From a bacterium (GTDB lineage Bacteria; Spirochaetota; Spirochaetia; Sphaerochaetales; Sphaerochaetaceae): 64,000 nucleotides of DNA. A model generated the notes under the pieces. It saw nothing but the letters and a program-made list of their open reading frames with translations, did no database searches and had not been told where the DNA came from. Made by a program: the position numbers and the translations under genes. The first letter of the stretch is position 1; each line of letters opens with the position of its first letter. Positions 6,966 through 56,959 of this stretch are shown piece after piece. The stretch spans positions 12,307 to 76,306 of the forward strand of contig CAVJIN010000001.1 of assembly GCA_963649615.1 (NCBI GenBank), in the 5' to 3' direction.

Positions 6966-8969
6966 ATGAGTTTTTCCACTACCTACAATTTGCCCATGAA
7001 CCTTGAAGAAATAGGAATTAAAGAACTCTCAGTAGAAGAAGCAAGCTTCTCCTATAATCAAAATACCATTGCCTCTTTTCGCAAAACATGTGGGAAAAAC
7101 GGCATTGTTGGACAACCTCGTGCTTTAAGTGCATTAAGCATGGGAATGAGCGTAAATACAAAAGGCTACAATATTTACATTAGCGGTGAAGATGGAACCG
7201 GAAGACATAGTGCAGTACATCAAATTGCAGAAACCCTTCCAGCTCCAAAAGAGCTTTACGACTTAATCTACGTTCACAATTTTGACAGAAATGAATCTCC
7301 ATTTCTTCTTTTGTTGCCAAGTCCCTATGGAACAGTCTTACAAAACTCACTAAGCGCTGTTGCATCTTTTGTAGATGCAGGACAGTGGGAAAGAGCTCTT
7401 ACAGAAGAAAAAGAGCTTGAAAAAACATTATCAGCTGTAGCTGAGCCCTTACTTCTAGTATTCCTAAGTCAACTTAGAACAGCCTTAGGAAAACACACAG
7501 AAGGCTATAAAAGATATCTTGGCAACCTTATTCACAATGGTTCAAAAACCAAAGTTCGTCCCCTTGTAGAAGAATACCACCCAACCCATGCAAACCTGTT
7601 TGGACAACTTACAAAAAGAGAAGAATACTGTCATTTAAGTCTCTCTGGTGGTTCCATTCTTGATGCAGTAGGAGGCTTTTTTGTAGTAAGAGCAGATAAA
7701 ATTCTTTCTCAGAACACCCTTTGGGAAGACATTAAACTTTTTGCTGAAAGCTCAAGCTTCACAATTCAAGGGCAACCAAATGACAATTTGCAAGACAAAA
7801 TCATCATAAGACCTGTTGTTTCTAAACTCCCAGTAAAGATCATTTTAATTGGCAGTGACACGCTCTATGACAAACTCTGTGACACAGACGAGGAGTTTCT
7901 TAGACTCTTTAAGGTCTCAGCAGAATTTGATTTTTCCATGCCAGCCAACGAAGAGAATATCAAGGGAACAATAGCCTATATCTTAAGTGTCATTGAAAAA
8001 AATTCACTATTACCAATCTCAGATGCAGCTATTTGTGAACTATTAAAATACAGTTCATGGTATGCAGAAATGAGAGGAGAACTCACAACAAGGCTCTCTT
8101 TTATAGGAGATCTTCTCTTTGAAGCAAACTATTTTGCAACTCAAAACAACGCCACAACCATAGATGAAAAATGCGTTAAACAAGCCATGAAGGCAAGAGA
8201 CTTTGCGAACGGATTGACAGAAGAAAAAATCAACAAGGAAATAGAAGAAGGTGAAATGATAATCTCCTTGGTTGGAACAAAAGTTGGAGTAGTAAATGGC
8301 CTTGCTGTCATGGACAGAGGTCTTGCTTCCTTTGGTACACCCACAGTGATATCGGTCTCTGTTGCACCCGGCTCGGAAGGAATTGTAAATATTGAACATG
8401 AGGCTGGCCTTTCCGGGGAGATACACGATAAAGGCCTTCTCATCCTGGAAGGATATCTCAGAAAACGCTATGCACGTTCTTTCCCGCTTTCAATCTATGC
8501 CGGAATTTGCTTTGAACAATCCTATGCAGAGGTAGATGGTGATAGTGCGTCGTCCTCTGAGCTCTTTGCTCTGCTCTCTGCCATTGGAGAGCTTCCTGTG
8601 CGCCAAGATATAGCAGTCACCGGCTCTGTAAACCAAATGGGAGACATCCAACCAGTTGGCGGAATAAATGAAAAGATAAGTGGATTTTTCTCAATTTGTG
8701 AAAAAATGGGCCTTACAGGCAGACAAGGAGTCATCATTCCAAAGCAGAATGTAAAATCCTTAATCTTGCCGGATAACATTATAGAGTCCATTCAAAAGGG
8801 AAATTTTCATATCTACCCAATCACAACTATAGATGAAGGAATGGAAATCTTAACGCTACGTCCAAGTGGAGAGCGCAACCCCAAAGGAACATTCCCACAA
8901 AACTCGGCAAACCGCATTATTGAAGACAGGCTCAAAAAGCTCTACGAACTTTCCAAGCCAGCAAATTAA
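6966..8969 (+). CDS. Lon-like protease (AAA-like N-domain plus S16 Lon proteolytic domain; YcbZ/LonC-like)
   Basis: The C-terminal GDSASSSELFALLSAI block carries the Ser nucleophile, and the PVGGINEKI block carries the Lys. The N-terminal P-loop-like sequence is GEDGTGRHS. Confidence 0.75.
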   Translation: MSFSTTYNLPMNLEEIGIKELSVEEASFSYNQNTIASFRKTCGKNGIVGQPRALSALSMGMSVNTKGYNIYISGEDGTGRHSAVHQIAETLPAPKELYDLIYVHNFDRNESPFLLLLPSPYGTVLQNSLSAVASFVDAGQWERALTEEKELEKTLSAVAEPLLLVFLSQLRTALGKHTEGYKRYLGNLIHNGSKTKVRPLVEEYHPTHANLFGQLTKREEYCHLSLSGGSILDAVGGFFVVRADKILSQNTLWEDIKLFAESSSFTIQGQPNDNLQDKIIIRPVVSKLPVKIILIGSDTLYDKLCDTDEEFLRLFKVSAEFDFSMPANEENIKGTIAYILSVIEKNSLLPISDAAICELLKYSSWYAEMRGELTTRLSFIGDLLFEANYFATQNNATTIDEKCVKQAMKARDFANGLTEEKINKEIEEGEMIISLVGTKVGVVNGLAVMDRGLASFGTPTVISVSVAPGSEGIVNIEHEAGLSGEIHDKGLLILEGYLRKRYARSFPLSIYAGICFEQSYAEVDGDSASSSELFALLSAIGELPVRQDIAVTGSVNQMGDIQPVGGINEKISGFFSICEKMGLTGRQGVIIPKQNVKSLILPDNIIESIQKGNFHIYPITTIDEGMEILTLRPSGERNPKGTFPQNSANRIIEDRLKKLYELSKPAN

Positions 8970-8998: not shown

Positions 8999-9349
8999 TT
9001 ACTTTCCAGAATAAAATCTAGAATCCCAATCACTTTCCTTCTTTTTTCTTTCTTCCTCTTCTGGTGCGTGAGTATTCGCAGAGGTGAAATCTTCTGTCTC
9101 CGGATTATAATAATATCTATGCTTGCTCTTTTTGGAGGCTTTCTCATCTTCCTCTTCATATGGATTTACAGGAAGAATGAAACCTAAGATTGCGTAGATA
9201 ACTAAACATGGAAAAACGGCTGTAAAAATAGCTACGAGAATAAATACGAGCCTTACGGCGTCTTCCGAAAAATCTTTCCATTGGGCAATGCCCTTGCAAA
9301 CTCCAAAGATTTCACCATTTTTTGATCTATAAAGTCTTTTTGTTGCCAT
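8999..9349 (-). CDS. pspC: PspC-domain membrane protein
   Basis: KRLYRSKNGEIFGVCKGIAQW followed by a single TM helix is typical of the PspC domain. It sits 15 nt downstream of pspA. Confidence 0.8.
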   Translation of the reverse strand: MATKRLYRSKNGEIFGVCKGIAQWKDFSEDAVRLVFILVAIFTAVFPCLVIYAILGFILPVNPYEEEDEKASKKSKHRYYYNPETEDFTSANTHAPEEEERKKKESDWDSRFYSGK

Positions 9350-9364
9350 TTTATTTTCCCTTTC

Positions 9365-10069
9365 TCAGCTTTTTTCCATTTTTTTCTTCAGTTCATCAAG
9401 TTCTTTCTGAATTGCATTCAATTCTTCCAAATCCTTGAATTTTTGCTCTAAATCTTCTTCTTTTTTTGCCTGTTGCTGTTCTTGCTCTTTACGAGCTTTC
9501 ATTCTATCAATGCGCTCTTCCATTCTAGCAAAACGCTCCATTGGGTCTTCTTTGTCCGTTTTCTCGGAATGTCCTTTCTCTGAGGAGCTAGAAAAATTAT
9601 AAGAGTATGAAGTCTCTGTGCTTTGCTCTTGTTTTTTCTGACTTTCTTCTCTCATCTTCTTGTACTTCTCTTTAGCACCAGCAAGCTTTTCTTCAAGCTG
9701 GGCAATGTCTGCCTTATATTTTTCAATAGCACTTTCATATTTTTGAACTTCTTCCCTTAATTGCAAAAGTTCTTCAGTAAGCTTCTTTTTCTCAAGTAAA
9801 GCCTCCTTTGCAAGAGAATCCTTTCCATTTGCAATAGCTAGTTCTGCTCTAGACTGCCAGCGATTAATCAAAGCCTCAAGTTCCTTAATTTTTCTATCGG
9901 TAGTAGTCTTTGAACCAATCACTGACGCGCAACTTGTTTTAATTTCAATGATGGTATCCTCCATCTCATTAATCATAAGCTTAATCATCTTCTCAGGATC
10001 TTCAGCCTGATCCAAAAGCGCATTTATATTTGAATTTACAATATCAAGAAATCTAGAAAAAACTCCCAT
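9365..10069 (-). CDS. pspA: PspA/IM30 family protein (phage shock protein A), paralog 1
   Basis: N-terminal MGVFSRFLDIVNSNINALLDQAEDPEKMIKLMINEMED, a long coiled coil, and a C-terminal ERFARMEERIDRM block. Confidence 0.85.
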   Translation of the reverse strand: MGVFSRFLDIVNSNINALLDQAEDPEKMIKLMINEMEDTIIEIKTSCASVIGSKTTTDRKIKELEALINRWQSRAELAIANGKDSLAKEALLEKKKLTEELLQLREEVQKYESAIEKYKADIAQLEEKLAGAKEKYKKMREESQKKQEQSTETSYSYNFSSSSEKGHSEKTDKEDPMERFARMEERIDRMKARKEQEQQQAKKEEDLEQKFKDLEELNAIQKELDELKKKMEKS

Positions 10070-10096
10070 GATAAATCTCCTTACACTTTCTATGTA

Positions 10097-10112
10097 GCAT
10101 TTTGCATGCCAA
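10097..10112 (-). promoter_or_regulatory. Sigma-54 (-24/-12) promoter for pspA-pspC
   Basis: The minus strand reads TTGGCATGCAAAATGC(T). GG and GC have the consensus TGGCACG-N4-TTGCW spacing. The GC element is 28 nt upstream of the pspA ATG, and GGAGA is the RBS. Confidence 0.7.
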
Positions 10113-10196
10113 CTTGATTTTTCCAGTTAAAAGGGCTTAAAACCCGATATTTTTATAGGTGTAGACTTCTTTATCTTGGCCATTTTAACCTTTTAT

Positions 10197-10209
10197 GGTA
10201 AATTTTACC
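10197..10209. promoter_or_regulatory. Palindrome GGTAAATTTTACC, candidate PspF upstream activating site / pspF autoregulatory operator
   Basis: Perfect 6-1-6 palindrome about 117 bp upstream of the predicted pspA start and 3 nt before the pspF ATG. A near-identical copy lies at 12070-12082. Confidence 0.5.
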
Positions 10210-10211
10210 AC

Positions 10212-11246
10212 ATGGACAGACAAACTGAAAACTACATAGGCGAATCAGAAGTTTTTCTAGACTTTCTACATAGAATTGCAGAGGCTGCAACAGTAGATAG
10301 AAGCGTTCTTGTAATAGGCGAAAGAGGAAGCGGAAAAGAACTTGCGGCAAGTAGATTACATTATCTGTCTAAGCGTTGGCAAAAACCCCTTGTTACGCTT
10401 AACTGCGCGGCTCTTGCCCCTTCTTTAATAGAAAGCGAACTCTTTGGATATGAGCAGGGAGCTTTTACAGGTGCAAACAAAACCAGAAAGGGAAGATTTG
10501 AAGAAGCTCAAGGAGGAACACTCTTTTTGGACGAAATTGGAAACATTCCAATGCAAGTTCAAGAAAAAATTTTAAGAGTTGTAGAATATGGAACCTATGA
10601 AAGAGTTGGATCCTCAGTAACTCATGAGGCAGATGTAAGAATAATTGGAGCAACTAATGCCAATCTAAAAGAACTATGCGAACAAGGAAAATTTAAAGAA
10701 GACCTGTTAGACAGATTAAGTTTTGAAGTAATTTTTGTTCCACCTTTAAGAGAAAGAGGAGAAGATATTCTTCTTTTAGCAAATTATTTTGCTACTCGTA
10801 TGTCTATGGAGTGCGGAATTGTAGGCAATCCCACTTTTTCTGAAGATGTTCAATTTAAGCTACTTTCATATTCTTGGCCGGGCAATGTTCGAGAGCTTAA
10901 AAATGTAGTTGAAAGAGCTGTTTACAGAAGTAAAGGAGAGACAATCTCTTCTATCCAAATAGACCCTTTTGTTAATCCGTTTGAAACAAAAGAAACAGAT
11001 AAAAAGCCAACGGATATTGATGTACAAAAACCTCAAACAACGGCCTATTTCTATGATAACATACCAATAAACAAGCTTAATGACACAAAAGAGAGCATTG
11101 AAAAGAATCTTCTCGAAAGAGCTTTACAAAAAACAAACGGCAACCAAAAAGAGGCTGCCGTTCTTATGGAGCTTTCATATGACCAATTTAGAGGTCTTTA
11201 TAGAAAGCACAAAGCTCATTTTGCAAAAACCTCAGAAGTTAATTAG
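10212..11246 (+). CDS. pspF: Sigma-54-dependent transcriptional activator with no N-terminal sensory domain (PspF-type)
   Basis: The AAA+ core begins about 10 residues from the ATG. It has Walker A GERGSGKE, the GAFTGA loop, the LFLDEI Walker B, and a C-terminal Fis-type HTH (NQKEAAVLMELSYDQFRGLYRKH). The track's TTG at 10176 was rejected. Confidence 0.8.
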   Translation: MDRQTENYIGESEVFLDFLHRIAEAATVDRSVLVIGERGSGKELAASRLHYLSKRWQKPLVTLNCAALAPSLIESELFGYEQGAFTGANKTRKGRFEEAQGGTLFLDEIGNIPMQVQEKILRVVEYGTYERVGSSVTHEADVRIIGATNANLKELCEQGKFKEDLLDRLSFEVIFVPPLRERGEDILLLANYFATRMSMECGIVGNPTFSEDVQFKLLSYSWPGNVRELKNVVERAVYRSKGETISSIQIDPFVNPFETKETDKKPTDIDVQKPQTTAYFYDNIPINKLNDTKESIEKNLLERALQKTNGNQKEAAVLMELSYDQFRGLYRKHKAHFAKTSEVN

Positions 11247-11892
11247 CAAACTTAGCTTTGAGCTCATTAAACTCAGCTTCCACACTTGCATTCTGTTCCA
11301 TACTTACAAAAGAAGTCTCAACTTTGTTTGCTTGAGAAAAAACAGAAGCCTCTGCTTCAAGTCGCTCAACTTTCTCCTCCATTTCGTTAAAACGTTTAAC
11401 TGCTTCTGAACAATCAAAAGAATTAATCTGCTTTTCCATCTCAATCTTCTCTTTAGCATGTTCTGCTCTAGCAACTAAGGTTCTTTCTTTGGCCTTTACT
11501 TCCTGAAGTTTTTCTGAAAGTTTTGCAATTTGAACTTCCTGGCTTGCGGAAATTTCTTTTAAAGTTTTCAACTCCTCTTCAACTTCTTCAACTCTAACCG
11601 CTGCCTTTTGTTTTTCAGAAATTGCTTCTTTTGCAAGCTCATCTTTGCCGTTTTTTACAGCCATTTGCGCTCTCATTTCCCATCGGGTAGTTGCAGCTTT
11701 ATACTCTTCCAAAACCTTTTCTCTTCCCTTAATAGTACAAAGAGTCTCTGACGCACTTTCCTTTGCCTTTTCTAAGGTCTCTTCCATCTGAGTAATACTG
11801 TACCTAATCATTTTAGAAGGATTTTCCATCTTGTCTAAAGCATGATTTACATTTGAACTAAAAATGTCGTGAATTCTCTTAAATGCGTTCAT
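11239..11892 (-). CDS. PspA/IM30 family protein, paralog 2
   Basis: N-terminal MNAFKRIHDIFSSNVNHALDKMENPSKMIRYSITQMEE, a coiled coil, and a C-terminal RFNEMEEKVERLEAEA block. Its 3' end overlaps the pspF 3' end by 8 nt (convergent). Confidence 0.8.
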   Translation of the reverse strand: MNAFKRIHDIFSSNVNHALDKMENPSKMIRYSITQMEETLEKAKESASETLCTIKGREKVLEEYKAATTRWEMRAQMAVKNGKDELAKEAISEKQKAAVRVEEVEEELKTLKEISASQEVQIAKLSEKLQEVKAKERTLVARAEHAKEKIEMEKQINSFDCSEAVKRFNEMEEKVERLEAEASVFSQANKVETSFVSMEQNASVEAEFNELKAKFAN

Positions 11893-11911
11893 CTTTTAAT
11901 CTCCTCGTAGG

Positions 11912-11929
11912 GAGGTTTTCAAAAACCTC
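11912..11929. repeat. GAGGTTTT-CA-AAAACCTC hairpin (intergenic hairpin family, copy a)
   Basis: Perfect 8-bp arms located 19 nt upstream of the pspA-2 ATG, just before the GGAGA RBS. Confidence 0.6.
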
Positions 11930-11976
11930 TAAAATTATTCTCTTTAAACCACAACACTTGTGGACACAAAGTCTAT

Positions 11977-11992
11977 TGCAAAACCCGTGCCA
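11977..11992 (-). promoter_or_regulatory. Sigma-54 (-24/-12) promoter for pspA paralog 2
   Basis: The minus strand reads TGGCACGGGTTTTGCA, a full match to TGGCACG-N4-TTGCA. It lies about 85 nt upstream of the ATG. Confidence 0.8.
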
Positions 11993-12069
11993 AGTTCCCG
12001 TAAGTCTATAATTGAACACAAAATAAACAAGAAGACACATAAACCACAACAAATGCAAGAACCAAAAAT

Positions 12070-12082
12070 GGTAAAATTTACC
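12070..12082. promoter_or_regulatory. Palindrome GGTAAAATTTACC, second candidate PspF upstream activating site
   Basis: Shares the flanks (ATGGTAAA-W-TTTACCAC) with the copy at 10197-10209. It lies about 109 bp upstream of the predicted pspA-2 start. Confidence 0.5.
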
Positions 12083-12134
12083 ACGAGAAAAAGTCGACCA
12101 AAAGTTGGCAAGCACAGAAAACGTTTAAAAAATC

Positions 12135-12183: not shown

Positions 12184-12471
12184 ATGGCTAAGGATGCTGT
12201 TCTTCAAATTAGGATTGATTCGGAACTTAAAGAAAAAGTTGAGGCTCTATATGATAATATGGGATTTTCTTTTGCTGATGCCGTTAGAATGTTTGCCGTT
12301 CAAAGCTTAGCAAACAATGGATTACCCTTTACTCCAAAATCAACAATACTTCTAAACAATTATCCAAATTCTGCTGGTGGAATCTTACACAAATATGCAA
12401 ACGCTTCTTTGTATGAAAAAGAAAAAGATGCTTGGGCAAGTGCGGTGGGAGAAAAGTATGGTCTTAATTGA
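12184..12471 (+). CDS. RelB/DinJ-family type II antitoxin
   Basis: LQIRIDSELKEKVEALYDNMGFSFADAVRMFAVQSLANNGLPF matches the DinJ ribbon-helix-helix pattern. AGGAGG is the RBS. Confidence 0.8.
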   Translation: MAKDAVLQIRIDSELKEKVEALYDNMGFSFADAVRMFAVQSLANNGLPFTPKSTILLNNYPNSAGGILHKYANASLYEKEKDAWASAVGEKYGLN

Positions 12472-12627
12472 TGCAAACATTATTCTACGCTATTTACTAA
12501 GAGACATAGAAGAGAAATATGCTATTGCAAGCCAAATCATAGAAAAAGGATGCTGTACAACAACGTGCTAGGGCAATCCGTTGTAAGTTTTGATAAAAAA
12601 CTAAATTCTCACTTGTTAGTTTTGTAG
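12458..12627 (+). pseudogene. Internally deleted PIN-domain (VapC-like) toxin remnant
   Basis: The ATG overlaps the antitoxin stop. MVLIDANIILRYLLRDIEEKYAIASQIIEKG is a PIN N-terminus, and the frame stops after 38 codons at 12571. In the +2 frame, 12568-12627 reads GQSVVSFDKKLNSHLLVL*, which looks like a PIN C-terminus. Roughly 75-80 central codons are missing. Confidence 0.6.
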
Positions 12628-47576: not shown

Positions 47577-47635
47577 TTTTTATAGTGCGTTACTATTAAT
47601 AGTAACAGAATAATGTGGGTTTTTACTCCCTGTTT

Positions 47636-50161
47636 TTACTCCTTTTTTTCTTCATTTAGAACTTCACTAGGAACAGATTCTTTTATTCCGTTCTCGGAAG
47701 AATTTACAACTTCTGTTGTATCTTCTATTTCATCTTCTTGGTAATCAGTAACAGTCATAGCAACAATGTAATCATCTTCTGTCTTCATTTTGACAATATT
47801 AACTCCTGTTGCAGCTCTTCCCTGACTTGAAATTCCGTTAACATGAGTTCTTATTGTTTGTCCTTTTTTGGTTATACAAACAAGGTCATTTTCATCGTTA
47901 ACTCCAAGTGCAGAAACAAGATATGTTCCAGTGGAAAGCTTATAAATAAGCTGTCCCATTGTTCCTCTTCCATGAGCTTTAAACAAATCAAAATCAACTT
48001 GTTTTCCTTTTCCTTGCTCTGTAACAAGAACAATGTTCTTATTCTGTTCAACCTTTACGAGACCAATAACTTCATCATCTTCTGCAAGTTTGATTCCTCT
48101 TACACCATGAGCAGTTCTTCCCATAACTCTTACATCATCTACGCTGAATCTAAGACCTTTACCTTTTTTAGTAACAATCATAGCTTCATCTCCAGGATGT
48201 ACAAACTCACATTTAATAAGAGAATCTCCTTCGTCAAGGATAATTGCCTTGATACCGTTCTTTCGTGCATTAATAAAGGAATTTAAAGCAACCTGCTTTA
48301 CAACACCCTGACTTGTTGCCATGAGAATGTATTCATCTTCAGCAAAATCTTTAAAATCAATAATTGCAGAAACACTTTCTCCTGCTTCCATCTTTGGTAA
48401 AACAGCTTTAAGACTTACACCTTTTCCAACTTTTTGTCCTTCTGGAAGTTCCCACACTTCAAGACAGAAAGCCTTTCCAAGGTTTGTCATAAACAAAATG
48501 TGATCATGTGAAAATGCAGAGAACATATGCTCGACAAAATCTTCATCTCTTAACAAGGCACCTTTAACTCCTTTTCCTCCACGAGCTTGAGACTTATATT
48601 CATCTGCAGAAACTCTCTTAACAAAACCTTTATTAGTAATGACAACAACAACGTCTTCTTTTTTAATAAAGTCTTTATCAACAAAACCACCAACTTCTTT
48701 AAAGTCAATTTCTGTTCTTCTGTCATCACCATATTCAGCTGAGAGTTCATGAATTTCCTTCTCTACTTCGCCCATGAATTTAACTTCATCAGAAAGCAAT
48801 TCTCTATAGAAAGCAATTTTTACTTCAAGCTCTTTTAACTCATCTATAATTTCTTGAGTTTCAAGATGACTTAATCTTCCAAGCCTCATTTGAATAATTG
48901 CATTTGCTTGCTTATCAGAAAGAGCAAATCTTCCTTGTAACGTTAAAGAAGCTTCTGCGTTATCTGCTGCTTTTTTTATAATTTCAATTACTTCATCTAT
49001 ATTCTCAAGACCAACTTTTAAACCAAGAAGAATATGCTCTCTTTCAAGTGCCTTATTAAGTTCAAATTGAGTTCTTCTTCTAATGACTTCCTTTCTGTGA
49101 TCAAGATAACATTGAAGCATTTGTTTGAGGTTGAGACACTTTGGACGACCATTAACCAATGCTAAATTATTAACATTGAAGTTACTCTCAAGCTGTGTAT
49201 TCATAAACAAATGACGTACTACAATCTCAGGAACAGCATCTTTTTTTAACTCAATGACAACTCTTATTCCATCGCGCCCGGATTCATCTCTAATTTCAGA
49301 AATATCTTTAAGGGTGTCTTCTTTTCTTAAAGCATCAATATGTTTTACCAGTTCAGCTTTATTAACCTGATAAGGAATTTCAGTAAAAACTATGGCATCA
49401 TGAGTCTTGTGTTCTTCTATGTGGTAACGACCTCTCATGACAATCTTGCCATGTCCTGTTTCAAAGGCATCTCTAATTCCCTTAACACCACAAACAATAC
49501 CTGCAGTAGGGAAGTCAGGTCCTTTTATGTAATTCATTAATTCTAAGACTGAAATCTCTGGATTTTCAATTAAAGCACAAAGAGCATCACATATTTCTCT
49601 TAAATTGTGTGGTGGCATATTAGTAGCCATACCAACAGCAATTCCACTGGTTCCATTTGCCAAAAGGAAAGGAAAACCAGCTGGAAGGACCTCAGGTTCT
49701 TTTAAAGACTCATCAAAGTTTGGGACAAAGTTTACCGTGTCTTTGTCTATATCAGCAAGCATAAGCTCGCCCATTTTGCTCATCTTTGCTTCTGTATACC
49801 TGTAAGCTGCTGGTGGGTCTCCATCTATAGAACCAAAGTTTCCTTGTGGTTTGATTACTGGATATCTTAGAGAGAAATCTTGAGCAAGTCTTACCAATGC
49901 ATCATAAACTGAAGCATCTCCATGTGGGTGAAATTTACCAAGAACATCACCAACGGTTCTTGCACACTTCTTAAAACTCCCAGTAGATTTGATACCTAAA
50001 TCATACATATCGTACAGGATTCTTCTATGTACAGGTTTAAGTCCGTCGCGGGCATCTGGAAGAGCTCTACTGACTATAACAGACATTGCATAGTCTAGAT
50101 AAGCTTTCTTCATTTCTTCTGAAAGATCCCTTATAAACACTCTATTTTCATTATTTTCCAT
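47636..50161 (-). CDS. gyrA: DNA gyrase subunit A
   Basis: The QRDR region reads [17 protein letters not shown], with the active-site Tyr context [10 protein letters not shown] and C-terminal beta-pinwheel repeats. Confidence 0.95.
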
Positions 50162-50175
50162 ACATTACTCCAAAA

Positions 50176-52212
50176 TTAGGCATCTATTTGTGCGTAAGTT
50201 GCGTTTTTCTCAATAAAGTCTCTTCTTGGCTCAACTTCCTCTCCCATAAGCATAGAGAACACCTGATCTGCTTCAACAGCGTCATTTAAATGAACCTGAG
50301 AAATAAATCTCGTTTCAGGATTCATTGTGGTCTCCCAAAGCTGTTCTGGGTTCATTTCACCAAGACCTTTATAACGTTGAACCTTTACATTTTTGGAATC
50401 ACTTTCAGTTTCTCCGTTACTAGCAAGAATCTCTGCCTTTTCATTATCATCAAACGCATAATAGTCTTTACCTTTTATTGAAATCTTGTAGAGAGGTGGC
50501 ATTGCAAAATAAACATAACCTGCCTCAATCAAAGGTCTCATATACCTAAAAAAGAAAGTCAAAAGAAGAGTTCTAATATGAGAGCCATCAACATCAGCAT
50601 CAGCCATAATAATGACTTTATGATAGCGTGCTCTTGAAGGATCAAAGGAAGCACCAAGCCCTGCACCAATTGAGTCAATGACAGGTTGAAGTTTCTCATT
50701 TCCTTCAACTTTATCCTCTCTTGTTTTCTCTACATTCAACATTTTTCCCCAAAGCGGAAGAATAGCTTGAGTTCTTCTATCTCTTCCGTTCTTTGCACTT
50801 CCACCTGCAGAATCTCCCTCTACAATGAAAATTTCGCACTGTGACGGGTCTTTTTCAGAACAGTCGGCTAATTTCCCGGGCAAACTCGTTGAACTCTTTT
50901 TGCGGGCATTTTCGCGTGCCTTCTTGGCTGCAATTCTTGCTTTAGATGATGCGATAGTTTTTACAAGGATTGGCAATACCTCACTTGGATTCTCATCAAA
51001 GTAGTCATTAAGCTTTTGATACACAAAACTTTGCACCAGGCCCTGTACATAGGAATTACCAAGCTTCATCTTGGTTTGTCCTTCAAATTGAGGATTTGTA
51101 ATCTTCACTGAAATAACAGCACTTAAACCCTCTCTCACGTCCGAATTAAATCCCTCTTTGAAATCATCAGACTCAAAAAAAGCTTCTTCCTTTTTATTTT
51201 TGCCGATAATTTCTTTCATATGAACACTAAGTTGGTTTCTAATAGCTGCTACCAAACCAGTAGTGAATCCAATAAGGTGTTTTCCCCCTTCTCTTGTGTT
51301 GATATTATTAGCAAAAGAGTGAAGGTTTTCATCAAACCTATCGTTGTACTGTAAAGCAAACTCAATTATTGCTGATCCGTTATCATTTGACCTTTCTCCA
51401 GCAAAGTAAATAGGAGAGGACCCTTCAGGAATAACTTTCTTATTTGTGTTGATAAAACTTACAAAGTCTTTTATACCACCATCAAAATGGAAAACCTTTT
51501 CTTCAGGATTTTCTTCTCTATTATCAACTGCAGTAATTGTGACACCTTTGTTAAGAAAGGCAAGTTCACGAAATCTTTCACATAGAATAGAGAAGTTAAA
51601 GTTATCGGATTCCATAATTGTGGTATCAGGATGAAATTTAATCACAGTACCAGTTCTATCTGTATTACCTATCTTTTTCACAGACTCCACAGGAACACCA
51701 TAATGGTACTCTTGCATATACTTGTCTGGATTTCTATGTACAACTGCCTCTAGGTAATCAGAAAGGGCATTAACAACACTAACACCAACACCATGCAAAC
51801 CACCAGAAACTTTATAGGCTCCACCGTTAAATTTTCCTCCTGCATGAAGGTGACATAAAGCAACTTCGAGAGTGCTTATTCCTTCTGTAGGGTGAATATC
51901 AACTGGAATTCCTCTTCCATTGTCTTCAACCGTTACAAAGTTTCCTTTATCTATTGTTACTCTAATATTGTCACAATAACCTGCAACAGCCTCATCTATT
52001 GAGTTATCAACAACTTCATACACAAGGTGATGAAGTCCTTCAGGGCCTGTTGAACCAATATACATACCCGGTCTTACACGAACAGCTTCAAGTCCTTTTA
52101 AAACTTGAATATTTTCTCCTGTGTAATTTTCAGAAGCATGTGTCATTTCTGCAACGTCTTCATGCTGAGCAGGCATTACTTTCTCTGGATTCATTGTTTC
52201 TTCATTCATCAA
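50176..52212 (-). CDS. gyrB: DNA gyrase subunit B
   Basis: GLEAVRVRPGMYIG, the GHKL ATPase motifs, Toprim EGDSAGG, and PLWGKMLNV. Confidence 0.95.
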   Translation of the reverse strand: MMNEETMNPEKVMPAQHEDVAEMTHASENYTGENIQVLKGLEAVRVRPGMYIGSTGPEGLHHLVYEVVDNSIDEAVAGYCDNIRVTIDKGNFVTVEDNGRGIPVDIHPTEGISTLEVALCHLHAGGKFNGGAYKVSGGLHGVGVSVVNALSDYLEAVVHRNPDKYMQEYHYGVPVESVKKIGNTDRTGTVIKFHPDTTIMESDNFNFSILCERFRELAFLNKGVTITAVDNREENPEEKVFHFDGGIKDFVSFINTNKKVIPEGSSPIYFAGERSNDNGSAIIEFALQYNDRFDENLHSFANNINTREGGKHLIGFTTGLVAAIRNQLSVHMKEIIGKNKKEEAFFESDDFKEGFNSDVREGLSAVISVKITNPQFEGQTKMKLGNSYVQGLVQSFVYQKLNDYFDENPSEVLPILVKTIASSKARIAAKKARENARKKSSTSLPGKLADCSEKDPSQCEIFIVEGDSAGGSAKNGRDRRTQAILPLWGKMLNVEKTREDKVEGNEKLQPVIDSIGAGLGASFDPSRARYHKVIIMADADVDGSHIRTLLLTFFFRYMRPLIEAGYVYFAMPPLYKISIKGKDYYAFDDNEKAEILASNGETESDSKNVKVQRYKGLGEMNPEQLWETTMNPETRFISQVHLNDAVEADQVFSMLMGEEVEPRRDFIEKNATYAQIDA

Positions 52213-52346
52213 AAATGAGCCTTCCTATATTAAGATATTCTTGTATAATTATATATTATTATAAGGTGAGCCTCAAGCACTCCAAATGTAATAATTACCC
52301 TTATTTCAACTTGAAAAGGCGGGTGTTAACGTATATCATTTGTCCT

Positions 52347-53741
52347 ATGCCAACAAAAGATGACTTGTTTTATGCAGAACTATGGGAAAAAACAATTTCT
52401 CAGATAAAAACCACTCTTCCAGAGAGTGAATTTGTTACATGGTTTTCACGTCTTGTATTTGGAAAAGAAGAAGGTGGGACAATTACTCTCTATACAACTT
52501 CAACCTTTGTAAAAGAAAAGTTTGAAGAAACATATAAAAGTCTCATTGAAAACACAATAAGTGAACTTGGAGACAAACCTTGCTTTGTTAAATTTGAAGT
52601 AAAAAAAGATGCTCAAAAACCAACTAATAGTGAAAAAACCAAAGAAATAGAGAAAAATAGGACATTATTAGAGAAAAATATACAGAAAAAAAAGAAAGCA
52701 GATGATTTAATGTTTAATCCTAATTACACTTTTGATTCTTTTGTTTCTGGCGATAATAGTAGCTTTGCTTACAATGCTTGTTTGGCAATTGCAAACAATC
52801 CTGGTTCTGCTTATAACCCTTGTCTTTTATACGGAGGAGTTGGTCTTGGAAAAACACATCTTATCCAAAGTATTGGAAATTACATAAGAAGTACTACAAA
52901 TTTAAAAGTCGTCTATATTACAGCTGAGAACTTTACAAATGAGTTTATTCAATCTGTTAATGATAAAAATTCACAGCAGTTTAAAAATAAATACAGAAAA
53001 GCGGAAGTTCTCTTGATTGACGATATCCACTTTCTTCAAAAAAAAGAAGGAACGCAGGAAGAACTTTTTAACACTTTCAATGATCTTTATGACACTGGAA
53101 GACAAATAGTTTTTACCTGTGATAGGCCGGTAGAGGAATTAAAAGATATTTCAGATAGACTTAAAAGCAGATTCTCAAGAGGATTAAATATAGACTTACT
53201 TCCTCCAAATTATGAAACAAGAGTTGCTATTTTAAAGAAAAAATGTCAAGAAAAAGGTGTTTCCTTTAGTAATGAAGTAATTGAATATATTGCTTCAAAT
53301 ATTTCAAGTAACGTGAGAGATCTAGAATCTTGTCTTACTAAGTTAATTGCTTACAGTACATTACTTCATAAGGACATTTCCTTAGAGACAGCAAAAGAAC
53401 AACTAAAACATATTGTAAGTAGAAACAACGATTCTACTGGTGTTTCAATAGATTTAATTATTAAAACAGTTTCAACATACTTTAATGTTTCTCCTTTTGA
53501 AATTAAAGGAAAAAGTAGAAATCAATCTGTTGTTATGCCAAGACAAATTGCAATGTTTCTCTGTAAAGATTTAACAGACTTTTCAACTACTGAAATTGGA
53601 ATGGAATTTGGAGGAAAAAACCATACCACTGTTATGTATAATGTTCAAAAAGTTGAATCAATGCTTAAATCAAGTGAAAAGGATATTAATACAATAATTG
53701 ATAAGTTAAAAAGACAAATTAAAGCTGATTCAAAGAAATAA
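52347..53741 (+). CDS. dnaA: Chromosomal replication initiator DnaA
   Basis: LWEKTISQIK, Walker A GGVGLGKTHL, LLIDDIHFL, and the domain IV block PRQIAMFLCKDLT...GGKNHTTV. The track's start at 51999 is an artefactual extension antisense to gyrB. Confidence 0.9.
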   Translation: MPTKDDLFYAELWEKTISQIKTTLPESEFVTWFSRLVFGKEEGGTITLYTTSTFVKEKFEETYKSLIENTISELGDKPCFVKFEVKKDAQKPTNSEKTKEIEKNRTLLEKNIQKKKKADDLMFNPNYTFDSFVSGDNSSFAYNACLAIANNPGSAYNPCLLYGGVGLGKTHLIQSIGNYIRSTTNLKVVYITAENFTNEFIQSVNDKNSQQFKNKYRKAEVLLIDDIHFLQKKEGTQEELFNTFNDLYDTGRQIVFTCDRPVEELKDISDRLKSRFSRGLNIDLLPPNYETRVAILKKKCQEKGVSFSNEVIEYIASNISSNVRDLESCLTKLIAYSTLLHKDISLETAKEQLKHIVSRNNDSTGVSIDLIIKTVSTYFNVSPFEIKGKSRNQSVVMPRQIAMFLCKDLTDFSTTEIGMEFGGKNHTTVMYNVQKVESMLKSSEKDINTIIDKLKRQIKADSKK

Positions 53742-53756
53742 TCTTTGTTCATAAGT

Positions 53757-53935
53757 TGTTGATAAAAAAAGAAAACTTACTTTCTTGCACATGTATAAAC
53801 AGGTTATACACAATTGTGTTTTAAAAAGTGCTAGACTTATTATTAAATGATTAAAGGAATTACTATTTTTTTGACATTTTTTGTGCTATATTATAACTAC
53901 TAAAATAAAAATTAAATAAATAAAAATAACAAAGG
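53757..53935. other. Candidate oriC (DnaA-box-like 9-mers plus an AT-rich unwinding region)
   Basis: TGTTGATAA (53757-53765) and TTATACACA (53804-53812) each match the 9-mer TTATCCACA / its complement at 8 of 9 positions. TTATACATG (53790-53798, minus strand) matches at 7 of 9. They are followed by an almost pure A/T tract at 53900-53932. Confidence 0.5.
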
Positions 53936-53945
53936 GAGATTGCCA

Positions 53946-55049
53946 ATGAAATTCGTTTGCCAAAAAAATGCAATACTTAAAGAACTGTCAAATGCTCTTG
54001 ATTTTACTTCTCAAAGAAACACTCTTGCTGTTTATGCAAACGTATGTTTAATTCTAGAAGGAAACAATCTTATTATAAAAGCTACAGATCAAAAAATGAG
54101 CTACGTTTCTGAAATTACTGTTCAAGGATTGGTAGACGGTTCAACAACTGTTATTTGCGACAAATTTCTTGAAATTATAAAAAATCTTCCAGAAGATGAG
54201 ATTTCTTTTGAAGATATAGATGATAAATTGACAATTAAGCCTGAAAATAATCGTATTGAGTTTAAGTTAAGAACCATAGAGGCATCGGCATTTCCAAGCT
54301 TGGATTTTGCTGAGGAGAATTCTTTTTTTCAGGTACCACAAAAAGATTTCACAGATATGATTAACCAAGTAATCTTTGCCGTAAGTGATGACGAATCAAA
54401 ATTTGCAATGACTGGTGCTCATTTAGAAAAAAAGGGAAGTTCTCTTGTTTTGGTTGCAACTGATGGAAGAAGGCTTTCATATATCTGTAGAAAGATTGAA
54501 GGAGAAATTCCTGACTTTAGTGGTGCTACTATTCCAAGTAAATTCTTAAATCTTGTAAAAAAGCTTTCTGTTGGAGAAGGTGATTTTGATGTTAGTGTTG
54601 GACAAAATACTATTTCAATTAGATTTGGGAGCTGTACAATTTCCTCAAATCTTATAAAAAACGATTTCCCTGCTTATAAAAGAGTAATTCCTGAAAAGCA
54701 AAATTCTTCTTGTGTTGTTAATATTGATAATCTTTCAAATGCTCTTAAGAGAGTCTCATTGCTTGTTGAAAATAAATACAAGAAGATTGTTATTGAGTTT
54801 ACAGAAAACAAACTGTCAATTTACAGTAATGAAAGTGAAGATGGTATAGGAAGGGAAGAAATAGAGTGTCAGTATGATGGAGAACCCTTAAAAACAGCTA
54901 TGAATTTCACTTATTTGCTTAGTCCTTTAAAGGTAATGGATGGAAAGGAAGCAAAAATTGAATTTAGTGATGCTGGAAGACCTTTTACACTTAAAGCGGA
55001 GCCAGAGAGGGATTATCTACATGTGATAATGCCTATGAATTTAAACTAA
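53946..55049 (+). CDS. dnaN: DNA polymerase III beta sliding clamp
   Basis: Three-domain length (367 aa) and the conserved position after dnaA. ATG at 53946 with an AGGGAG RBS. Confidence 0.9.
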   Translation: MKFVCQKNAILKELSNALDFTSQRNTLAVYANVCLILEGNNLIIKATDQKMSYVSEITVQGLVDGSTTVICDKFLEIIKNLPEDEISFEDIDDKLTIKPENNRIEFKLRTIEASAFPSLDFAEENSFFQVPQKDFTDMINQVIFAVSDDESKFAMTGAHLEKKGSSLVLVATDGRRLSYICRKIEGEIPDFSGATIPSKFLNLVKKLSVGEGDFDVSVGQNTISIRFGSCTISSNLIKNDFPAYKRVIPEKQNSSCVVNIDNLSNALKRVSLLVENKYKKIVIEFTENKLSIYSNESEDGIGREEIECQYDGEPLKTAMNFTYLLSPLKVMDGKEAKIEFSDAGRPFTLKAEPERDYLHVIMPMNLN

Positions 55050-55052
55050 TAG

Positions 55053-56150
55053 ATGCTAATAAAAAGTTTGTCACTAAAAGGATTTCGAAATCTTGTTAAT
55101 TGTGACATTGATACTTCTTATAAACAAGTAATTCTCAAAGGGGAAAATGGGCAAGGTAAAACAAACCTTCTTGAGGCGGTCTATCTTTTATGTTATGGAT
55201 CTTCTTTTAGGACTCAAAATTTAAAAGAGGTTGTTTGTCACGGTGAAGAATTTTTTCGTATAAAATCTATTTTTGAGGATAATCAAAACCTTGAAAGAAA
55301 GGTTGATCTTTCATTTATAGAAGGAAAAAAGAAAATAAGACTTGATGGTTGTGAGATAAAAGATAGAAAAGAGTTAATTTATAGTATTCCTTGTATTGCA
55401 TTTACACATGAAGATATTTCTTTTGTTCGAGGAGAACCTGAAAACAGAAGGAGATTTTTTGATCAAACAATGTCCATGTATGATCCTTCTTTTTTTGATG
55501 ATTTAAGAAGATATAAACTTGTTTTAAGACAAAGAAACGCTGCTATAAAAGAACAACAATATTCACTTTTAGATGTATATGATGAAAAACTCGCATTTTA
55601 CGGACTTCCAATAATGAAAGCTCGTCGTGCTGTTTTAAATTCTTTTTCTACTATTTTTCCTGATATTTATAATGCAGTTTCTTTAGAGGATAGAAAAATT
55701 GAAGTAAAATATAGACCTTCATGGGATGAAGGCAAGAATGTTGACGAAATTATCTCTTCTCTTGGTCAACAAAGAGAGGTTGATATAAAGCTTTCTACAA
55801 CAACGAGTGGTCCTCATAGGGATAGGTTTATAGTTTCTGATTCAAATGGGCCTTTTATTAATTCTGCGTCTACAGGACAAATAAGATTAGCTTCCTTAGT
55901 TTTTAGATCTGCGCAAGCTGTTTTTTTTAGACAAAAGACTGGTCTTAATCCTGTTTTTTTAATAGATGATGTCCTTTTAGAGTTAGATACACCAAAAAGA
56001 GCAAGATATCTTTCATATTTAGGACATTATAATCAAGCTTTCTTTACATTTCTTCCAGAAGAAAAATATTTTGATCCTTTCTTTGATTTAAGTGACGGTT
56101 GTTCTAAAATATATAAGGTCAGTAATGGAAAAATTGAAGATGAAGAATAA
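55053..56150 (+). CDS. recF: DNA replication and repair protein RecF
   Basis: Walker A GENGQGKTN, the signature SGPHRD/STGQ, and Walker B FLIDDV. Confidence 0.9.
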   Translation: MLIKSLSLKGFRNLVNCDIDTSYKQVILKGENGQGKTNLLEAVYLLCYGSSFRTQNLKEVVCHGEEFFRIKSIFEDNQNLERKVDLSFIEGKKKIRLDGCEIKDRKELIYSIPCIAFTHEDISFVRGEPENRRRFFDQTMSMYDPSFFDDLRRYKLVLRQRNAAIKEQQYSLLDVYDEKLAFYGLPIMKARRAVLNSFSTIFPDIYNAVSLEDRKIEVKYRPSWDEGKNVDEIISSLGQQREVDIKLSTTTSGPHRDRFIVSDSNGPFINSASTGQIRLASLVFRSAQAVFFRQKTGLNPVFLIDDVLLELDTPKRARYLSYLGHYNQAFFTFLPEEKYFDPFFDLSDGCSKIYKVSNGKIEDEE

Positions 56151-56487
56151 TTATAAGAAAGACAATTATAAAACTCTTTCTCCTGAGGATCCTGCAGACA
56201 GTGGGGTTTATATTGATAAGATTTTTGAAAGGTTTGGAATAAATATTAATTCTCCTGAGGTTCAATTAAACATAAGATGGTCTGATATTGTTGGAACAGA
56301 ACTAGCCAAGGAAATTTTTTATGAAAAAATTTCAAATGAAACATTATTTATTATTTGTAAAAGTTCTTCCTATGCAAGTTTTGTAAGATTGAATTCCAAC
56401 GACATAATAAAAAAGGTTAATTCAGCTTTTCCTGAATTGAAGATAAAGAAAATATTTTTAAGAGTTTCACCTTATGGGAGGTTTTAA
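56140..56487 (+). CDS. DUF721 (DciA-like) protein
   Basis: W-DIVG--LA...L-I---SS-A--L pattern ([13 protein letters not shown]...[14 protein letters not shown]). It sits directly after recF and overlaps its end. The start could be 56125 or 56140. Confidence 0.7.
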
Positions 56488-56488
56488 A

Positions 56489-56959
56489 ATGGTTGAAAGA
56501 ACTTTTATTGCAATTAAACCAGATGCAGTTCAAAGGGGACTCATTGGAAAAATAATAGCCCGAATTGAGGATAAAGGGTATAAAATTGTGGCATTAAAGA
56601 TGCTTCAGGTATCTGATGAGCAAGCAGCAAAGCATTATGCTGAACATTTTGGAAAACCTTTTTATCCAACTCTCGTGAAATTTATTACCAGTGCTCCTAT
56701 TATTGCTATGGTAATAGAAGGAGAAGATGTCATTCTAGGAATGCGTCAAATAATGGGAAAAACTAATCCCTCAAATGCAGAAGTAGGAACTATTAGAGGA
56801 GATTTTTCTCCAGAGATGAGTTTTAACATTATTCACGGCTCGGACAGCCCGGAGAGTGCAAAAAGAGAAATAGACATTTACTTTAAAGATGAGGAAATAT
56901 GTGATAAATGGCAAACCTCTTTTGAGATTCTAAAAAATAATATGTCAAAGCAATCATAA
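56489..56959 (+). CDS. ndk: Nucleoside-diphosphate kinase
   Basis: [18 protein letters not shown] and the active-site NIIHGSDS. Confidence 0.9.

Follow-up and report, generated by a model that had tools for sequence, protein, structure and literature searches.

We analyzed a 64-kb stretch of DNA from a Sphaerochaetaceae spirochaete (contig CAVJIN010000001.1 of assembly GCA_963649615.1, positions 12,307 to 76,306; hereafter the window, whose own numbering is used below). It very likely carries a genuine PspF/sigma-54 phage-shock-protein (Psp) regulon on the chromosome of a gut Sphaerochaetaceae spirochaete, the interactions among its products being predicted from sequence. The mechanism of the Psp response is understood almost only in enterobacteria, where PspA is regulator, sensor and effector at once and these roles are hard to separate. 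The spirochaete module combines one PspF with two diverged PspA targets, no PspB and an altered PspC tail, and is therefore a potentially simpler natural test system. It could show which features of PspA serve PspF control and which serve membrane repair, and how induction proceeds without PspB.

The module comprises four open reading frames (ORFs), whose order and coordinates in the ORF list agree with the preliminary description of this DNA: a pspC-like gene and pspA-1 on the minus strand, the divergent pspF on the plus strand, and pspA-2 on the minus strand, convergent with pspF. The pspC-like gene (8999-9349, 116 amino acids) matched the Pfam family PspC (PF04024) with an E value of 2.6e-13 and 50 bits against a cut-off of 25. 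The codirectional pspA-1 (9365-10069, 234 amino acids) and pspA-2 (11239-11892, 217 amino acids), which overlaps the end of pspF by 8 nt, both matched PspA_IM30 (PF04012) over their full length, with E values of 3.4e-38 and 2.9e-36 and scores of 131.9 and 125.6 bits against a cut-off of 33.9. The duplication of pspA on both sides of the activator gene, as originally proposed, is thus borne out. The activator gene pspF (10212-11246, 344 amino acids) matched Sigma54_activat (1.5e-61), AAA_lid_14 and HTH_8, so that all three profile models suggested in the preliminary description (PspA_IM30, PspC and Sigma54_activat) found their targets. In NCBI and JGI annotations, these proteins already bear the names PspF or PspA.

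The activator scored 453.4 bits against TIGR02974, the equivalog model of PspF, which is above the cut-off of 443.55 bits. The listed ORF of 356 amino acids opens at a TTG codon at 10176. The real start is the ATG at 10212, because gene callers on identical contigs give a protein of 344 amino acids and because its first residue aligns with residue 1 of Escherichia coli PspF. In the Pfam search, the AAA+ domains occupied residues 21-273 of the 356-residue ORF, with no receiver, sensory or any other N-terminal domain, and a Fis-type helix-turn-helix (HTH) domain was found at the C-terminus (HTH_8, 1.3e-06, 28.5 bits against a cut-off of 22). This is the receiver-less architecture that had been read from the ORF. 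Alignment with E. coli PspF gives 49% identity over the full length, and the two proteins are colinear from residue 1 (of the E. coli reference sequences that we used, PspF, PspA and PspB were identical to NC_000913.3 and PspC was off by one residue). The alignment revealed the Walker A motif GERGSGKE, the GAFTGA motif and the segment RLHYLSKRWQ with a tryptophan at position 56. In E. coli PspF, mutation of W56 abolishes PspA binding (PMC6003685).

Both pspA genes are preceded by sigma-54 (-24/-12) promoters on the minus strand, identified by pattern match where the layout in the preliminary description has them: TGGCATGCAAAATGCT at 10096-10111 for pspA-1-pspC and TGGCACGGGTTTTGCA at 11977-11992 for pspA-2. 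The pattern TGGCAY-N5-WTGCW has only three matches in the 64-kb window (0.38 expected; at least three in 0 of 100 shuffled sequences), two of which are these promoters. The third, at 56589-56604, falls within the coding sequence of ndk, has no palindrome near it and was dismissed as a chance match. The exact palindrome TGGTAAAwTTTACCA occurs twice in the window, each time about 85-95 bp upstream of the -24 element of a pspA gene. One copy, the perfect palindrome TGGTAAATTTTACCA at 10196-10210, is a candidate upstream activating sequence (UAS) for PspF that we call UAS-I; it ends one base from the pspF ATG, and on its other side the -24 GG of the pspA-1 promoter follows some 93 bp downstream. 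The other is the palindrome TGGTAAAATTTACCA at 12069-12083, which precedes the -24 GG of the pspA-2 promoter by about 85 bp. A second candidate site beside UAS-I, the imperfect palindrome TGGCCATTTTAACCT at 10177-10191 (UAS-II), has its center 19 nt from that of UAS-I, and this spacing is 19-20 nt across the aligned loci. When two mismatches were allowed, the scan returned one further match elsewhere in the window, with 0.29 matches expected at that setting.

The E. coli K-12 region has the same design, which is why we read the palindromes as PspF sites. There, TGATGAAATTCGCCA lies directly beside the pspF ATG, TAGTGTAATTCGCTA follows 20 nt further on, and the -24 element TGGCACGCAAATTGT is about 95 nt from the TGATGAAATTCGCCA site. 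The palindromes are therefore candidate UAS sites of PspF by positional and sequence homology, with binding inferred. In spirochaete loci whose PspF identity to the window falls from 91% to 61%, a -24/-12 match and an equally spaced palindrome precede almost all pspA genes, whichever their type. In the deeper spirochaete locus L021, the distal member of a tandem pspA pair is exceptional in having neither. In L010 and L011, the scan found no palindrome match upstream of pspA-2, and a degenerate sequence, TGGTATTTTTCGCCA, is aligned there. Alignments of 13 loci showed that the invariant columns are almost exclusively promoter and palindrome elements: TGGTA..TT..CCA, TTGGCA...TT.TGC and a short GTGTCC block upstream of pspA-2, and TGGTAAAATTTACCA, GG........CCA and TTGGCA.G....TGCT in the pspF/pspA-1 intergenic region. 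A second site is present in some relatives. These comparisons show that the sequence of the PspF UAS and the promoter geometry are conserved from E. coli to Spirochaetota, so PspF regulons should be predictable in uncultured gut spirochaetes. Together with the equivalog score, the lack of a sensory domain and the W56 loop, the sigma-54 promoters and UAS before both pspA genes match the PspF design that had been proposed for the activator, in which control by PspA is predicted.

The invariant GTGTCC block (11950-11975 region) is located about 10-15 nt downstream of the -12 element of the pspA-2 promoter, and a GTGT is similarly placed in the pspA-1 promoter; the block may indicate where transcription starts or which stretch is transcribed first. 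We also considered a conserved hairpin in the 5' untranslated region of the pspA-2 mRNA. Small hairpins can be drawn after GTGTCC locus by locus, but RNAalifold returned no consensus pairs, and the hairpin was discarded.

A possible sigma-70-type promoter for pspF (10176-10204, plus strand) can be read in the sequence as TTGGCC, a 17-nt spacer and TAAATT. It overlies UAS-II and UAS-I, transcription from it would start at or next to the pspF ATG, and the same arrangement of -35 and -10 elements is readable in the pspF/pspA-1 intergenic sequences of relatives. Its position inside the two sites suggests autorepression and possibly a leaderless pspF mRNA.

The exact PspF was found in two NCBI metagenome-assembled genomes (MAGs) and two Logan assemblies, with identical neighbours. 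In a homologue scan with one genome per GTDB species, the closest loci come from Sphaerochaetaceae or Spirochaetales MAGs with PspF identities of 61-91%, in agreement with the spirochaete-like context noted at the outset. Below about 60% identity, the matches are from Desulfobacterota, Entotheonella, Nitrospirales, Lentisphaerae and Verrucomicrobia. When homologues of PspA, PspC and PspF were mapped on all loci, the complete ones of the gut/rumen Sphaerochaetaceae clade (the window, L006-L013, L015, L016 and L028; L014 and L017 are truncated at contig or locus ends) all showed pspC and pspA-1 divergent from pspF and pspA-2 convergent with it, with 0-35 nt between pspA-1 and pspC. The suggestion of a lineage variant is upheld by this conservation of the layout in at least 13 related loci. 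Among the deeper spirochaetes, L018 and L019 have a short pspC after pspA-2, and in L021 two pspA and two pspC genes stand in tandem. The non-spirochaete loci have a single pspA and a gap of 230-450 nt or larger before pspC. In most of the 80 related loci, pspA adjoins pspF.

We found no sign of recent acquisition of the module, because its GC content (0.365-0.39) equals that of the surroundings and it is kept family-wide; recent horizontal transfer was rejected on these grounds. Two apparent variants were also rejected. A pspA-1 of 236 amino acids overlapping pspC in GCA_963640085.1 (L002) and a promoterless pspA-1 of 185 amino acids in GCA_963621675.1 (L004) each result from a run of 10 N at a scaffold join and not from a deletion. 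Some source names do not fit the taxonomy. Three bins with a PspF 78-91% identical to that of the window and the same layout are titled Phocaeicola massiliensis (L006, CAVEGR010000100.1), Selenomonadaceae bacterium (L007, CAVFGI010000028.1) and Bacteroidaceae bacterium (L010, CAVBWZ010000007.1), and are probably mislabelled or contaminated. Some H07xxx bins among the 61-91% Sphaerochaetaceae/Spirochaetales matches likewise bear implausible names.

The absence of pspB, which the preliminary description had pointed out, withstood a profile search. Only 15 nt separate pspA-1 from pspC in the window. In L018, L020, L021 and the non-spirochaete loci, the gap between pspA and pspC encodes a PspB-like peptide with a single transmembrane segment and the ending RIxxLExIL, whose best Pfam match is PspB at a sub-threshold 15-24.5 bits against a cut-off of 25.6. 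E. coli PspB as a lone phmmer query detected no PspB anywhere and was replaced by Pfam scans and a custom profile built from nine gap peptides and E. coli PspB. This profile matched 59 of 86 loci at E < 1e-3. In six-frame translations of the 64-kb window, L001-L017 and L028, it gave no match even at E <= 10. A PspB-like gene still lies between pspA and pspC in the deeper spirochaetes, Desulfobacterota, Nitrospirales and others. By these profile comparisons, the absence of pspB is therefore a derived loss shared by the whole gut Sphaerochaetaceae clade. An opposite case, expansion of pspB, was seen in a Nitrospirales MAG (L057, 3723-4683), which has three tandem PspB-like ORFs between pspA and pspC, and in L025 (2890-4627), with up to five matches to the PspB-like profile in the same place; these contrast with the loss in the window's clade.

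The PspC of the window has one transmembrane segment, an acidic low-complexity tail and the conserved terminus ESDWDSRF. A C-terminal alignment showed that the PspC proteins of the clade keep the terminal E-DWD-RF, whereas the heptad-like segment is replaced by acidic low-complexity sequence. The residue equivalent to V105 of E. coli PspC, located by counting 11 residues back from the conserved phenylalanine, is isoleucine or valine in all pspB-containing loci examined and arginine throughout the pspB-less clade; it counts against this assignment that it hinges on a gapless register anchored on DWDxRF in a low-complexity tail. V105D in E. coli and V125D in Yersinia abolish the PspC-PspA interaction and PspC-dependent signalling (PMC6003685), and PspA and PspF have been viewed as the minimal functional core (PMC3041696). 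The canonical gating by PspBC would thus appear to be dismantled or rewired in this clade. With no hydrophobic residue left in the PspC tail at the site required for binding PspA, induction probably does without PspBC.

The two PspA proteins are 31% identical and colinear. In a distance-based neighbour-joining tree (midpoint-rooted, without bootstrap support), the PspA-2 type formed a separate clade made up of sequences from the gut clade and from L018-L020, and PspA-1 grouped with the other PspF-linked PspA proteins and E. coli PspA. All named database homologues of PspA-2 are from Spirochaetales MAGs. PspA-1 scored 122 bits against E. coli PspA and is the nearer of the two copies to proteobacterial PspA, and PspA-2 scored 98 bits on the LiaH model of NCBIfam. 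As judged from this tree and the database matches, PspA-2 is an old, divergent spirochaete paralog. It is not decaying, because both PspA clades are equally conserved (mean pairwise identities of 0.70 and 0.71 in the same 12 genomes).

We compared the two proteins at those positions, in E. coli numbering, whose conservation reaches 80% or more in a set of 56 single-copy PspA proteins linked to PspF. PspA-1 keeps 16 of the 21 conserved positions in residues 1-24 and PspA-2 keeps 11; the counts are 15 and 10 of 17 in residues 25-47, 27 and 25 of 42 in residues 48-144, and 15 and 18 of 34 in residues 145-222. Residues 25-47 are the established PspF-regulatory segment (PMC6003685). Pro25, the MExT motif and an amphipathic N-terminal helix (hydrophobic moment, muH, 0.47 and 0.53) are present in both. 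The asymmetry of N-terminal conservation favours PspA-1 as the main anti-activator, so that PspA-1 would be the better candidate for the anti-activator of PspF and PspA-2 more probably serves as a further effector or modulator at the membrane.

From the gene identities, the conserved promoters and UAS, the clade distribution and the residue conservation, we infer binding, autorepression and a division of labour between PspA-1 and PspA-2. PspF would be a constitutively active AAA+ enhancer-binding protein without a sensor domain. It would bind TGGTAAAwTTTACCA-type palindromes, two in the pspF/pspA-1 intergenic region and one upstream of pspA-2, and switch on two sigma-54 promoters, those of pspA-1-pspC and pspA-2. 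PspA, bound to the W56 loop, would restrain PspF as in E. coli and would free it once drawn to the stressed membrane. The intergenic UAS pair overlaps both the start of pspF and the promoter that it likely uses, which makes autorepression by PspF probable. Induction is probably independent of PspBC through direct sensing of the membrane by the N-terminal amphipathic helix of PspA, and a second, old PspA paralog would have been recruited into the PspF regulon. We tentatively propose, as one possible reading among others, that the two jobs of E. coli PspA are split in this clade: PspA-1, together with PspC, would be anti-activator and sensor, PspA-2 would be a PspF-induced effector of membrane repair, and signalling would have become independent of PspB after rewiring of the PspC tail. 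If true, the module would be a natural separation-of-function system for IM30/ESCRT-III proteins.

Several results weigh against this picture. Both PspA proteins fell short of the PspA equivalog model TIGR02977 (199 bits for PspA-1 and 157 bits for PspA-2, cut-off 242.95), and PspC fell short of the equivalog model TIGR02978 (60.4 bits, cut-off 104). A consensus promoter scan did not report the embedded sigma-70 promoter of pspF. A search for rpoN with a regular expression for the RpoN box gave no match in the 64-kb window or in the loci fetched for comparison. That two -24/-12 elements and the GAFTGA motif are strictly conserved is nevertheless a strong argument that sigma-54 is present, and spirochaetes as a phylum generally have sigma-54 with one or two enhancer-binding proteins (PMC3162934). 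As to the split of roles, PspA-2 retains Pro25 and the amphipathic N-terminal helix, so PspF binding is possible for it too.

In a different arrangement, which takes up the competition suggested in the preliminary description, both paralogs would bind the W56 loop of PspF and compete or co-assemble as anti-activators, so that two negative feedback loops of unequal strength would be integrated. That each pspA has its own sigma-54 promoter and UAS, that both proteins have Pro25, MExT and the helix, and that both are under similar constraint would all fit, but seven of the 17 conserved positions in residues 25-47 are changed in PspA-2 against two in PspA-1, and we regard dual control as conceivable but doubtful. 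The roles could also be reversed, with PspA-2 as the dedicated regulator of PspF and PspA-1-PspC as the membrane effector unit. PspA-2 keeps slightly more of the C-terminal conserved positions (18 against 15 of 34), PspA's C-terminal domain also contacts PspF in E. coli (PMC6003685), and pspF is paired with pspA-2 in every clade locus, often with overlapping 3' ends. However, the N-terminal regulatory segment is better kept in PspA-1, and in every single-copy lineage it is the divergent pspA beside pspF, in the position of pspA-1, that is the regulator by E. coli homology. A reversal therefore seems unlikely. An activator free of PspA control, either a generic truncated bacterial enhancer-binding protein (bEBP) under an unlinked sensor or a constitutive one with the pspA genes as mere targets, is hard to reconcile with the equivalog-level PspF score, the W56 loop conserved at the identical position, the lack of a sensory-domain gene beside pspF and the adjacency of pspA and pspF in most related loci; we consider it very improbable.

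The proposed circuit does not draw on one further feature, found where pspF and pspA-2 converge. A terminator-like hairpin with a T-run (11135-11163, minus strand, -17.6 kcal/mol) follows the pspA-2 stop codon at a distance of 78 nt, in antisense to the part of pspF that encodes the HTH, and is the only terminator-like hairpin for pspA-2. It was not retained as the pspA-2 terminator, since it is kept in the closest relatives only and the other loci have intergenic terminators or none; it may be a by-product of codon conservation in the HTH. The 3' overlap and the antisense hairpin imply that induced pspA-2 transcription may run antisense into the 3' end of pspF, which raises the possibility of antisense or transcriptional-interference feedback of pspA-2 on pspF.

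The module shares with the psp systems of E. coli and Yersinia enterocolitica a PspF that has no receiver but carries GAFTGA, the W56 loop and a Fis-type HTH, and a divergent pspA transcribed from a sigma-54 promoter with pspC downstream. As in E. coli, two UAS of related sequence (TGrTrAAwTTyrCCA) adjoin the start of pspF, some 95 bp away from the -24 element, and a second PspF-dependent promoter exists elsewhere, that of pspG there and of pspA-2 here. Unlike the E. coli and Yersinia systems, the spirochaete module lacks pspB, pspD, pspE and pspG. It differs further from E. coli in that the second PspF target is a PspA paralog, convergent with pspF and overlapping its 3' end, in that the PspC tail has no heptad region and an arginine at the V105 position, and in that PspA and PspC are below the NCBIfam equivalog cut-offs.

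The pspF-pspA-pspB-pspC loci of Desulfobacterota, Entotheonella, Nitrospirales, Lentisphaerae and the deeper spirochaetes L018, L020 and L021 have an orthologous PspF (53-66% identity), a divergent pspA and the terminal motif of PspC, and the spirochaete ones also have the sigma-54 promoter and palindrome; comparative genomics of such loci is given in PMC11237479. They differ by the PspB-like ORF between pspA and pspC and, outside spirochaetes, by a single pspA; in L018 and L019, pspA-2 is followed by a short pspC-2, and L021 has the tandem order A-C-A-(B)-C. Two diverged PspA/IM30 proteins per genome are also found in Bacillus subtilis (PspA and LiaH) and in cyanobacteria (PspA and Vipp1). 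However, those paralogs are under different control, whereas the spirochaete pair is predicted to be under one PspF/sigma-54 activator whose gene it flanks, and the spirochaete system has no LiaFSR, sigma-W control or Vipp1 C-terminal extension.

The preliminary description overstated how unusual the module is. PspF-type bEBPs were catalogued earlier in several phyla (PMC3162934), pspA beside HTH regulators was reported in Spirochaetota (PMC9239133), and Ravi et al. 2024 (PMC11237479) described variants of pspABC and of the PspF operon in "some" or "a few" spirochaetes; a search of the supplement to that study gave no spirochaete examples. The nearest non-spirochaete relatives of its PspF, in the five groups named above, make it less exceptional still. 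The module is a family-wide variant of the known E. coli-type system and no new kind of system. We came across no earlier description of three features: the conserved regulon of two promoters and two PspA proteins that flanks pspF, the disappearance of pspB from this clade together with the correlated change in PspC, and the agreement of E. coli and spirochaetes in the sequence and geometry of the UAS.

Several neighbouring features of the window were also noted. A gene for a LonB/LonC-like protease (6966-8969, plus strand; AAA_32, LonB lid and Lon_C) is convergent with pspC, with 29 nt between the stop codons, and this adjacency is kept in near-identical contigs. On the other side of the module, a gene for a RelB/DinJ antitoxin (12184-12471) precedes a PIN-toxin gene cut to a remnant ORF of 64 amino acids (12377-12571). 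The window lacks 184 nt of the PIN-toxin region that are found in GCA_963640085.1 (compare L002, 6301-6937) and GCA_963621675.1. This deletion lies between TACAACAAC direct repeats and is common to the Logan contig L003. Finally, the region around 47600-56200 looks like a chromosomal replication origin, where the GC content falls to 0.30 and the GC skew flips its sign at about 52 kb. It contains gyrA (47636-50161, minus strand), gyrB (50176-52212, minus strand) and a divergent ORF of 580 amino acids (51999-53741, plus strand), followed by dnaN (53940-55049) and recF (55053-56150). The psp module is located about 42 kb from the switch point of the GC skew.

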